From: Escherichia coli
GTDB lineage: Bacteria > Pseudomonadota > Gammaproteobacteria > Enterobacterales > Enterobacteriaceae
DNA: 64,000 nucleotides
NCBI RefSeq assembly: GCF_044324785.1
Contig: NZ_CP172127.1
Strand: one strand, 5' to 3'
Below, one piece after another: positions 53,668 through 57,403 of the stretch. Numbering within the stretch: position 1 is the first letter of the stretch; the number at the start of each line of letters is the position of its first letter. Position numbers and translations under genes: made by a program. Under the pieces are notes generated by a model, which was not told the DNA's origin, did no database searches, and was given only the letters and a program-made list of their open reading frames with translations.

Positions 53668-53877
53668 TTAATTCATCACAACGGCCTTCTGCATATTAAA
53701 ATCAATACTATCGCTCAAAACACGCCAGATGATTCTTGTCAGCTTATTCGCCAGCGCACCAGTGGTTTTCAGGAACCCTCGACGGGCTTCCATCCTTTGC
53801 AGACAAATACTCAGACTGTCAGTGAGCTTTTTCACACAGCGCATTACAGACTGAAATGGCACACTGAATTTGGTCAC
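53668..53877 (-). pseudogene. IS110-family transposase C-terminal remnant
   Basis: ...RRGFLKTTGALANKLTRIIWRVLSD resembles the IS110-family C-terminal helix. Confidence 0.4.
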
Positions 53878-53887
53878 CTGAACAGAG

Positions 53888-54603
53888 GTGATATGCTCAC
53901 CTCAGAACAAGACTGGTGCCCTAATGAAAAAAAGAAATTTTAGCGCAGAGTTTAAACGCGAATCCGCTCAACTGGTTGTTGACCAGAACTACACAGTTGC
54001 AGATGCCGCCAAAGCTATGAATGTCGGTTCCTATACACTGGGGGGCATGGGTACGTCAGCTCAGGCGGGAACGTCAGGATACCACGTCTTCTGCATCACC
54101 ACTCACATCAGAGTAGCAACGTATTCATGAACTGGAAAAGCAGGTTCGTCGCCTGGAGGAACAAAAAACGATATTAAAAAGCTACAGTGCTCTTGATATC
54201 CTTCCCACTGAACGGTTTACGATAGTTACCAGACTGAGCGGCGACACACGATTGTCAGTCTTTGCGCTGCTCTGGATGCTCATTGCAGCAGTTCCGGCAC
54301 TGGCAGAATCGGCTCAATACGATTGATCCGGCGCGAATCAAATTGTATAGCGAAACAGTCCGGGTCTGGAACCAGAGTCGGGGTTCCGCAGGTGCGCGTG
54401 CTCTGGCAGATATGCTGATTCAAAATGGTATCCCGATGAGCAGTTGTCGTGCCAGGCGGCTGATGAAGCATCTGAACCTGAGAAGTGCTCAGCCCGGAAA
54501 ATATCAGTACAAAAATGCCCGCCAGGAGCATACCAGCCTGCCGAGTCTGCTTGAGTGTCGGTTTTCTGTGCTGGAGGCCGAGCAGGTATGGATTCTTAAA
54601 TAA
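53888..54603 (+). pseudogene. IS911-like (IS3-family) remnant: frameshifted orfA plus orfB N-terminal fragment
   Basis: [32 protein letters not shown] matches IS911 OrfA then goes out of frame; downstream fragment has IS3-family OrfB N-terminal pattern. Confidence 0.55.
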
Positions 54604-55006
54604 ACCTCGAGTCTGAATCGGTAACTAGCTGTTATATTCTGAATTATTACAATAGCGTCAGGCCTCATAATTACACTGTGGGTTGACGCCGGAAGAATCA
54701 GAGAACAGATACCGTTCTTACTGTAAAACGTGGCTAATATTAATTGAGCACTGCAGTGTTCAGAGCACAAAGAAGAAAAAAGATGTGTGCGAATGCCTGT
54801 AATGTGTTAAAAGAATGTTCCGCGTTTCCGGTACGCTTTTCGTAACTAACAATGCAGGGTGACGTAACGCTGGTTGTGCCGGAAACGCGTCCCTCCCCCT
54901 ATCTTTCCTGTTTGGATTTGCCCCTATATTTCTGGATTATCCGACAAAACCGGCGTGAAGTATTACTCTCGTCGCCCAGCACCATAAGGATAACGCCCAT
55001 AAAATC

Positions 55007-55372
55007 ATGAAACTTTTCTTCCAGATTGGATACAATCAGGCCGTATCCCGTATTACAGGCTTATCACGTGTGACAGTCAGTCTCTGGGTGTGTTCAGGAA
55101 CATTCCCTGAAATGTCAACCCGGCCTCCAGAGCGAGGACTTCTGGCCCCATGGAGGGAGTGGTTAAAAGAGCAACGAGAAAGTGGTAACTTCGGCGCGTG
55201 GCTGCAAGGATGGCAGCTGATGCTGCGGCTATATGTGAGGCAATCGGCAGTCGCTGGAATAATGGGGGTTGTCGAAAGTCATGTAAATAGACTAAAAATG
55301 CTGAAAGGCCAGATGTATGGTCGAGCCGGATTTGAACTACTCAGACAGAGGGTCATGAGTCCACTGGCATGA
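55007..55372 (+). CDS. AlpA-like HTH regulator (tentative)
   Basis: ...AVSRITGLSRVTVSLWVCSGTFP... resembles the AlpA/Xis-type HTH. Confidence 0.35.
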   Translation: MKLFFQIGYNQAVSRITGLSRVTVSLWVCSGTFPEMSTRPPERGLLAPWREWLKEQRESGNFGAWLQGWQLMLRLYVRQSAVAGIMGVVESHVNRLKMLKGQMYGRAGFELLRQRVMSPLA

Positions 55373-55426
55373 AAATCTCCATCCAGGTTGCGTAAGAGCC
55401 ACTTTTCATCCGTCGTCGATATCTGG

Positions 55427-56621
55427 GGAAGGTGCGAACAAGTCCCTGATATGAGATCATGTTTGTCATCTGGAGCCATGGAACAGGGTTCATCATGAGT
55501 CATCAACTTACCTTCGCCGACAGTGAATTCAGCAGTAAGCGCCGTCAGACCAGAAAAGAGATTTTCTTGTCCCGCATGGAGCAGATTCTGCCATGGCAAA
55601 ACATGGTGGAAGTCATCGAGCCGTTTTACCCCAAGGCTGGTAATGGCCGGCGACCTTATCCGCTGGAAACCATGCTACGCATTCACTGCATGCAGCATTG
55701 GTACAACCTGAGCGATGGCGCGATGGAAGATGCTCTGTACGAAATCGCCTCCATGCGTCTGTTTGCCCGGTTATCCCTGGATAGCGCCTTGCCTGACCGC
55801 ACCACCATCATGAATTTCCGCCACCTGCTGGAGCAGCATCAACTGGCCCGCCAATTGTTCAAGACCATCAATCGCTGGCTGGCCGAAGCAGGCGTCATGA
55901 TGACTCAAGGCACCTTGGTCGATGCCACCATCATTGAGGCACCCAGCTCGACCAAGAACAAAGAGCAGCAACGCGATCCGGAGATGCATCAGACCAAGAA
56001 AGGCAATCAATGGCACTTTGGCATGAAGGCCCACATTGGTGTCGATGCCAAGAGTGGCCTGACCCACAGCCTAGTCACCACCGCGGCCAACGAGCATGAC
56101 CTCAATCAGCTGGGTAATCTGCTGCATGGAGAGGAGCAATTTGTCTCAGCCGATGCCGGCTACCAAGGGGCGCCACAGCGCGAGGAGCTGGCCGAGGTGG
56201 ATGTGGACTGGCTGATCGCCGAGCGCCCCGGCAAGGTAAGAACCTTGAAACAGCATCCACGCAAGAACAAAACGGCCATCAACATCGAATACATGAAAGC
56301 CAGCATCCGGGCCAAGGTGGAGCACCCATTTCGCATCATCAAGCGACAGTTCGGCTTCGTGAAAGCCAGATACAAGGGGTTGCTGAAAAACGATAACCAA
56401 CTGGCGATGTTATTCACGCTGGCCAACCTGTTTCGGGCGGACCAAATGATACGTCAGTGGGAGAGATCTCACTAAAAACTGGGGATAACGCCTTAAATGG
56501 CGAAGAAACGGTCTAAATAGGCTGATTCAAGGCATTTACGGGAGAAAAAATCGGCTCAAACATGAAGAAATGAAATGACTGAGTCAGCCGAGAAGAATTT
56601 CCCCGCTTATTCGCACCTTCC
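55427..56621 (+). mobile_element. IS5 (1195 bp), apparently intact
   Basis: Terminal inverted repeats GGAAGGTGCGAACAAG (55427-55442) and CTTATTCGCACCTTCC (56606-56621); full-length transposase. Confidence 0.9.
55459..56475 (+). CDS. insH: IS5 transposase InsH
   Basis: 338-aa ORF beginning [46 protein letters not shown]..., recognised as IS5 InsH. Confidence 0.9.
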
Positions 56622-56981
56622 TTAACGTTATCCGCTGACGTCGATATTCCCGTGGTGAGAGATAACCTAACGCACTATGCGGATGGTTTTCATTGTAATG
56701 CTCGAACGCCTCTGCAAGGTTATGCAATGCCGTTATTACATTCAGTTTCGGCATGAACGCGATGTAGTCTTCATTCACGTTTTCACGAACCTTTCTGCCA
56801 TTCTATTGCTCTGAGGGCTACTGACTGCCGTCGTGCAGGGCTCCAGATTCAACTCTCTGGCGAATTGCCGTGTTTCATGAGCCGTATAAGCCGAACCGTT
56901 ATCCGTCCGCCACTGGATTGCTCGTTCCGGTCCTTTATCGCCAAAGCGTTTTTCTATCGCTCCTAACATCACATCCTGCAC
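56622..56981 (-). pseudogene. IS2-like (IS3-family) transposase OrfB C-terminal remnant, frameshifted and cut by IS5
   Basis: ...[45 protein letters not shown] and ...[43 protein letters not shown] in two frames; reading continues into the IS5 end. Confidence 0.55.
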
Positions 56982-57403
56982 TGTCGGCTTTATCGTAACC
57001 TCCCGTACTGGTCACGGGCAGACTGTTCATCATGTTAAACCCAGCCGCTGTCAGATCATGCACCGGCCGGATGGCGGGCTGACCTGCCCCGCCGCGCTGC
57101 TGCCCGCCAATCCATTTCTTACCTTCCTTCCCGGTGGCCTGACGTCCGGCCTCGTCCCCTTTCACCGCATCACCGTCACCGCTGTTCACCACCTTCTTGT
57201 ACTCTTCCAGCATCGCTGGCCTGCGTCCATTTGCTGCGATCAGAAAAGTCCATCATCCGTTTTGCCATGTTCTGGCAGTTCAGTTACGCCTTGTCGAAAG
57301 CCACATTCGCCTGCAGCACACCGTTGGTGATCATGTCGTACAGGCCGGGGTTGGCACGCTGTATCACCATCGCCGGCAGACTGGCAGCGGCGCCGGTCGC
57401 CCC

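Follow-up and report, generated by a model that had tools for sequence, protein, structure and literature searches.

The window analysed here is a 64,000-nucleotide stretch of Escherichia coli contig NZ_CP172127.1 (assembly GCF_044324785.1), and its subject is a cluster of insertion sequences (ISs) between positions 53423 and 57009. From left to right, the cluster contains the 3′ remnant of an IS110-family element, a defective IS3-family element followed by a spacer, the 3′ remnant of an ISEc38-like (ISL3-family) element, a complete IS5, and an orfB remnant of an ISEc48-like element (IS3 family, IS2 group). IS clusters of this kind are known biology, the debris of transposons, and by its sequence everything here apart from IS5 reads as debris. 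The IS5 copy lacks a target-site duplication (TSD) and stands in place of 842 bp that its IS5-free relatives retain. Our reading is that the region is a non-functional pile-up of IS remnants at a module boundary, into which IS5 inserted before the DNA on its left was lost; we give this reading a probability of about 85%.

IS5 occupies positions 55427–56621 on the plus strand and spans 1195 bp. Its 16-nt terminal inverted repeats (TIRs), GGAAGGTGCGAACAAG and CTTATTCGCACCTTCC, are imperfect, with 15 of 16 positions (94%) complementary. The length of ~1.2 kb and the 16-bp TIR, GGAAGGTGCGAA(C/T)AAG, are those of the IS5 family. The transposase open reading frame (ORF; 55459/55495–56475) is intact, matching NF033581 with E = 1.8e-109 and 365.5 bits (cutoff 140), and includes the DDE_Tnp_1 and DUF772 domains. 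At the identical locus of strain 1517k (reference segment L001), the NCBI Prokaryotic Genome Annotation Pipeline (PGAP) labels the gene as an intact ‘IS5-like element IS5 family transposase’ (WP_000019402.1). The sequence recurs at an identity of at least 99% in 1,891 E. coli records, and the window holds no other copy. The element is presumably still mobile, at least potentially. It resembles the IS5 of E. coli in its length, its 16-bp TIRs with one mismatch, its intact DDE transposase and a right flank that fits the IS5 target, and is identical to the copy that PGAP names IS5; unlike that element, it has no 4-bp target duplication and its left flank is a deletion junction.

The two flanks of IS5 do not match. 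IS5 prefers YTAR as its target, and the TTAA immediately to its right (56622–56625; positions 9271–9274 of the LS45 segment, L002, and 2001–2004 of the ISEc48 segment, L005) fits that preference, so the right flank is a normal-type IS5 target and TTAA the surviving target copy. In the ISEc48-like orfB this TTAA falls within the final two codons, beside the stop codon (L005 1996–1998). On the left, CTGG (55423–55426) separates IS5 from the ISL3-like end and forms the left deletion junction, and no 4-bp TSD is present. The 9-mer CGTCGATAT is found unchanged to the left and to the right of the element, at 55414–55422 and 56639–56647 (repeat D4, 75% over 20 nt). We rejected it as a recombination substrate because the deletion endpoints do not lie at the repeat, and its presence on both sides is probably due to chance.

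The DNA to the right of IS5 (56622–57009, minus strand) is a 388-bp, frameshifted remnant of an ISEc48-like orfB in which the C-terminal portion of the rve core is preserved. In blastn searches it shares 90% identity with ISEc48 (L005 2001–2388, and also L003) and 71–73% with IS2. Profile matches point the same way: NF006918 (IS2 TnpB) is covered at positions 172–290 of 301 with E-values of 3.9e-24 and 3e-19, matches that fall short of the full-length cutoff because the piece is a fragment, and rve and rve_3 match with E = 1.6e-8 and 1e-8. The ‘IS2-like’ assignment of the sequence-only reading is therefore correct at the level of the group, and ISEc48-like is by its sequence the closer name, IS2 being more distant. 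About 30% of the element is left. The window holds ISEc48 positions 44–431 only, so that orfA and both inverted repeats (IRs) are missing and the element is incomplete. In strain LS45 the ISEc48 homology runs 42 bp further, up to the TGTTCTTGCCCC terminus with its TG end; this right IR end is kept only in the IS5-free relatives.

The DNA to the left of IS5 belongs to a different family, and the element from which it derives was absent from the sequence-only list. It is the 3′ remnant of an ISEc38-like element (55044 to ~55422, plus strand) that is truncated at its 5′ end, carries an internal deletion of 347 bp and is reduced to ~380 bp. Positions 55044–55188 are 93% identical to ISEc38 (L009 2501–2645) and 55187–55419 are 88% identical (L009 2993–3220), and NF033550 (ISL3) is matched at profile positions 275–368 of 370 with E = 4e-9. 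The likeness to ISEc38 takes in the C-terminus of the transposase together with the right IR. Positions 55378–55419 match, in inverted orientation, the left end that this element has in strain H105 (L010), indicating that the terminal inverted repeat has been retained; IS5 begins 4–7 bp past this end.

Comparison with LS45 reveals what the site looks like in the absence of IS5. The window is collinear with LS45 at 100% identity over 52793–55427 and at 99.99% over 56622–64000. The alignment breaks at window position 55427 (L002 8428), and the 1195-bp IS5 stands in place of the 842 bp at L002 8429–9270. This segment has a GC content of 34.6%, contains an SgcJ/EcaC-family gene (TIGR02246) and carries the 42 bp of ISEc48 homology at its right end. 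The missing TSD is thus explained by the loss of 842 bp on the left; it reflects the history of the site and not the identity of the element.

Genome counts refer to 5,426 complete E. coli genomes, ~58 of which carry the locus. The exact left junction of the IS5 scar is found in five of them, in addition to the present genome, and window positions 53000–58000 are 100% identical in five complete genomes, including that of 1517k. The IS5-free locus is present in LS45 and ~50 others, ~53 related complete genomes in all, and is about ten times commoner. The flanks of the two alleles are almost the same, with no more than a single base difference in 10 kb. Elsewhere, the 842-bp segment has received independent insertions of IS1B, IS1414 and ISVsa5 in three strains (L017, L018 and L019), each with a 9-bp duplication (L002 9167–9175, 8585–8593 and 8958–8966, respectively). 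These insertions indicate that the IS5-free state is ancestral and that the segment is a tolerated landing site for ISs. Together with the commoner IS5-free allele and the near-identical flanks, they identify IS5 as the most recent event at the locus, in agreement with the sequence-only reading, which had also correctly taken IS5 to be complete with both TIRs at 55427–56621 and to be the only intact element.

The sequence-only reading had described IS5 as inserted into an IS2-like transposase gene; taken as a simple nested insertion, this would leave both halves of the gene in place. The right flank is indeed an IS2-group orfB and the target TTAA lay inside that gene, which is the part of the claim that holds. 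The left flank, however, is of the ISL3 family, neither a target duplication nor any other ISEc48-like sequence is found in the window, and 842 bp are missing relative to the IS5-free strains. Plain insertion is rejected by this comparison, and we consider it extremely improbable. What we propose instead has two steps. IS5 would first have transposed into the TTAA at the very end of the ISEc48-like orfB, within its last two codons. The 846 bp to the left of the element, made up of the 842 bp and one TSD copy, would then have been lost; with them would have gone the 42-bp ISEc48-like terminus and an AT-rich segment of ~800 bp containing the SgcJ/EcaC-family gene. The deletion would have halted 4–7 bp outside the ISL3-like inverted repeat. 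Loss of a TSD by adjacent deletion is a documented outcome for ISs, the IS5 family included (PMC11708052). The arrangement resembles the IS-adjacent deletions, or ‘IS-Del’ events, described for IS903, for IS150 in the long-term evolution experiment and for an IS5-family element in E. coli C (PMC11708052), in that an intact IS lies at a deletion junction, no TSD is present and one flank is a normal target. It differs from them in being a natural allele fixed in a small clade, with a small deletion (842 bp) and a mechanism that we infer. What is observed directly is the arrangement of the elements, where IS5 inserted, its replacement of 842 bp, the missing TSD and the small number of genomes that carry the IS5 allele.

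Missing TSDs can arise through IS-adjacent deletion, through recombination between IS copies or possibly through capture of an IS at a break (PMC11708052), and insertion followed by adjacent deletion is the one we favour among three routes that the data cannot separate. Several points weigh against it. The order of insertion and then deletion is one that we infer, no intermediate having been found: every genome that carries IS5 here also has the deletion, and a reconstructed 304-bp junction representing IS5 with the ancestral left side and TTAA on both sides is found in none of the 5,426 genomes. The ancestral left junction, CTGG|GATA, is not a YTAR site, which is unexpected for a transposase-directed intramolecular attack. 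In addition, the IS names used here are the PGAP labels of the best-matching intact copies and not ISfinder assignments, and percent identities to reference ISs are not ages.

Two other routes were considered. Two IS5 copies in the same orientation, one in TTAA of the ISEc48-like orfB and the other beside the ISL3-like end, could have recombined homologously, deleting the 842 bp between them and leaving a single IS5. Mismatched flanks such as CTGG and TTAA are the classic signature of recombination between ISs, which is a frequent cause of missing TSDs (PMC11708052), and the 842-bp segment is a proven IS hotspot. This route nevertheless calls for two insertions plus recombination as opposed to one insertion plus a deletion. 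Neither a singly nor a doubly inserted genome is seen in the sample, and CTGG is not the YTAR target expected of an independent IS5 insertion; we regard it as unlikely. The non-YTAR left junction counts somewhat against both a second IS5 insertion and a strictly transposase-targeted intramolecular attack. It speaks for a one-step event in which a DNA break or deletion junction captured IS5, insertion and deletion occurring together with no normal target cleavage and never a TSD. Such an ‘IS-Del without TSD’ has been proposed for an IS5-family element in E. coli C on the basis of laboratory evolution (PMC11708052), and the present locus would be a clonally fixed natural case. The absence of a TSD and of any intermediate among the sampled genomes agrees with it, but with only five IS5-bearing genomes an unsampled intermediate says little. 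The right junction, however, is of the canonical kind, a perfect YTAR-type site beside an intact IS5 end such as normal transposition leaves, and this speaks against an origin by break capture alone. We rank capture as less probable than recombination between two copies, and retain insertion followed by adjacent deletion as the favoured history.

The four older elements are dead, bearing truncations, internal deletions and frameshifts, and none has a TSD. For IS5 and for the IS110-family, IS3-family and IS2-group remnants, the blastn E-values range from 1e-58 down to 0, far past chance. These matches and those to family profiles bear out the placement of the fragments in IS110, the IS3 family with IS911-like features and the IS2 group, and none of the fragments proved to be unrelated to IS families. 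No other half of the ISEc48-, ISEc38-, IS110- or IS3-like fragments is present in the 64-kb window, including that of the IS2-like element which the sequence-only reading had proposed to look for.

The IS3-family element at 53852–54755 (plus strand, 904 bp) retains both of its termini, TGAAATGGCAC... and ...GAGCACTGCA. These are TG...CA ends with imperfect IRs (TGAAATGGCACACTG... at 53852 and ...TTGAGCACTGCA at 54755), and both align to the ends of IS911, ISEc31 and an IS3-family element of strain B1. The sequence-only description of an IS911-like remnant captures the family and the IS911-like start of orfA; the element is, however, a mosaic with two termini and not a simple end fragment. Its first 176 bp (53852–54027) are 92.6% identical to IS911, with 93% over the first 100 bp, and beyond this point the windowed identity drops to ~50%. 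The remainder shows 76–86% windowed identity to ISEc31, with blastn matches at 53857–54591 (75%) and 54627–54755 (87%) that skip ISEc31 positions 753–1127. The corresponding internal deletion of ~341–375 bp in orfB, seen as a 341-nt alignment gap, removes most of the rve core, and orfB also contains stops. The first ~35 residues of the orfA helix-turn-helix, which we take to be close to those of IS911 OrfA, are followed by a loss of frame.

Domain matches in this element (HTH_Tnp_1, HTH_21 in the N-terminal part of orfB, and NF033516) are those of the IS3 family. The element shares with IS911 and ISEc31 its TG...CA termini with related IRs, the orfA helix-turn-helix in the IS911-like DNA and the HTH_21 of orfB; it differs from both in being mosaic, internally deleted, frameshifted and interrupted by a stop. 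Intact orfA and orfB genes with a programmed −1 frameshift for OrfAB production are not present, and an Rfam scan of window positions 53000–58000 found no frameshift element. A 3–4 bp target duplication is likewise absent, the flanks reading GAC/AGAC on the left and GTG/GTGT on the right. We found no full-length close relative of the mosaic element in E. coli. The 288 bp to its right (54756–55043) are a non-IS spacer that contains a 14-nt inverted repeat (54821–54889) and gives no family match in profile scans. Window positions 54012–55043 are contiguous and 99.3% identical in plasmid pEC7-1 (L004 3001–4031), with homology ending exactly at 55043/55044, indicating that the IS3-family element has this spacer as its native flank on the right.

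The IS110-family remnant lies on the minus strand at 53423–53851. It consists of the last 61 codons of the recombinase (53668–53851) and ~245 bp of the 3′ non-coding end (53423–53667), so that the fragment noted from position 53668 onwards is real and extends further left. Its 5′ side ends exactly at the left IR of the neighbouring IS3-family element. The ORF at 53668–53877 (minus strand) matches NF033542 weakly (profile positions 302–340 of 343, E = 2.8e-4), and tblastn finds the C-terminus of a plasmid-borne Klebsiella aerogenes transposase, annotated as IS110-family, at 86.7% amino acid identity over 60 residues. Since the remnant lacks the N-terminal catalytic (DEDD, RuvC-like) domain, the assignment to IS110 depends on the 92.8% DNA identity that its 429 bp share with a full-length element annotated as such, that of K. 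aerogenes pYD-K10_1 (L013 2500–2928); identity to a Rahnella copy (pPlas1) is 86.9%. The likeness to these two elements covers the final 61 codons along with the 3′ non-coding end, and the 429 bp kept here include no catalytic domains.

Some IS110/IS1111-type elements encode a guide (bridge or seek) RNA in a non-coding end. An Rfam scan of 53000–58000 at E ≤ 1 returned no match, the 3′ non-coding end of the remnant included. The rest of the IS110-like gene is not found beyond the IS3-family element; the only further hit to the window in a tblastn search with the full IS110 transposase is an unrelated fragment at ~63.4–63.8 kb. The spacer at 54756–55043 was considered as a continuation of the gene past the IS3-family element and ruled out, as all of its frames are closed, no family matches and no TSD is present. 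In pYD-K10_1 the full-length IS110-family element also borders an IS3-family element, ending within its terminal repeat or directly beside it (L013 ~2917–2928); this IS3-family element and the one in the window are 76% identical. The occurrence of IS110- and IS3-type neighbours in two unrelated contexts may reflect targeting of IS3-family ends by the IS110 family. The fragment at the right of the window (~63413–63811, minus strand) is a second, unrelated IS110-family piece with 36% amino acid identity to residues 206–335 of the K. aerogenes IS110 transposase. It adjoins an IS630-family element at the right end of the window, and PGAP annotates it as a frameshifted transposase pseudogene.

One IS appears to interrupt another at only two places in the cluster, where IS5 enters the ISEc48-like fragment and where the IS3-family element meets the IS110-like fragment; elsewhere truncated fragments abut one another without TSDs. 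The order among the four dead elements can be read at two junctions only, that between the IS3-like and IS110-like elements and that between the ISEc48-like element and a gene on its right. This gene, a member of the conjugative-element family TIGR03755, survives as a 5′ fragment (57010–57745, minus strand) that is frameshifted and breaks off where it meets the ISEc48-like fragment. Of the 419 profile positions, 1–67 match at 57404–57745, and 69–139 and 132–200 match in two further frames at 57010–57410. Homology therefore ends at about profile position 200, exactly at 57010.

In the PGAP annotation of the identical stretch of 1517k, given here in window coordinates, phoX is followed by two ‘transposase’ pseudogenes (53888–54591 and 55044–55373), the intact IS5 transposase (55495–56475), an ‘integrase core domain’ pseudogene (56584–57009), a hypothetical protein, the TIGR03756 and TIGR03757 conjugative-element pseudogenes, and iha. 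The surrounding 49 kb of 1517k are almost unbroken IS debris (IS3, IS66, IS21/IS100, IS110, IS630 and a group II intron). Debris on both sides for tens of kilobases places the cluster inside a large mosaic island and not at its outer edge. The sequence-only suggestion that the cluster marks the edge of a degraded island is apt in that it abuts the truncated TIGR03755-family gene. The edge in question is the boundary between two modules of the mosaic island, a phoX/ABC-transporter module on one side and a decayed conjugative-element module with iha on the other. A literature search for an island combining iha and phoX gave no relevant description.

Other parts of the window also depart from the related strains. 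To the left of ~10.9–11.0 kb (window 1–11042), the window diverges from 1517k, where an IS66 element sits, and matches LS45 only in part, on the ugpB side; this suggests a further strain-specific rearrangement in the island. The most notable feature of the window lies outside the IS cluster. It is a 38,341-bp transposable prophage of the BcepMu/phiE255-like type at 14452–52792, which splits phoX. Its TG...CA ends carry repeated GATAAAT motifs, and a GTTCCC direct repeat flanks it (14446–14451 and 52793–52798) that is single-copy in 1517k. The prophage encodes a gin-like invertase (14530–15231), tail fibre genes, a DDE transposase (45109–46878), an AAA ATPase, gam, gemA and mor. Its transposase shares 98% identity with that of Escherichia phage PhiKM and 69% with that of Burkholderia phage phiE255. 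The early region is oriented divergently from the late one, an arrangement known from BcepMu-type phages and not from Mu. The junction between the prophage and phoX is found in none of the 5,426 complete E. coli genomes.

The analysis provides a precise map of IS debris that automatic annotation marks only as ‘transposase’ or ‘integrase core domain’ pseudogenes. A seemingly clean IS5 insertion turns out to be an insertion plus deletion accompanied by gene loss, and the loss of the SgcJ/EcaC-family gene is its sole visible functional consequence. Where a TSD is missing, a locus should first be compared with its IS-free relatives and only then be called nested. The IS5 scar is a handy clonal marker.

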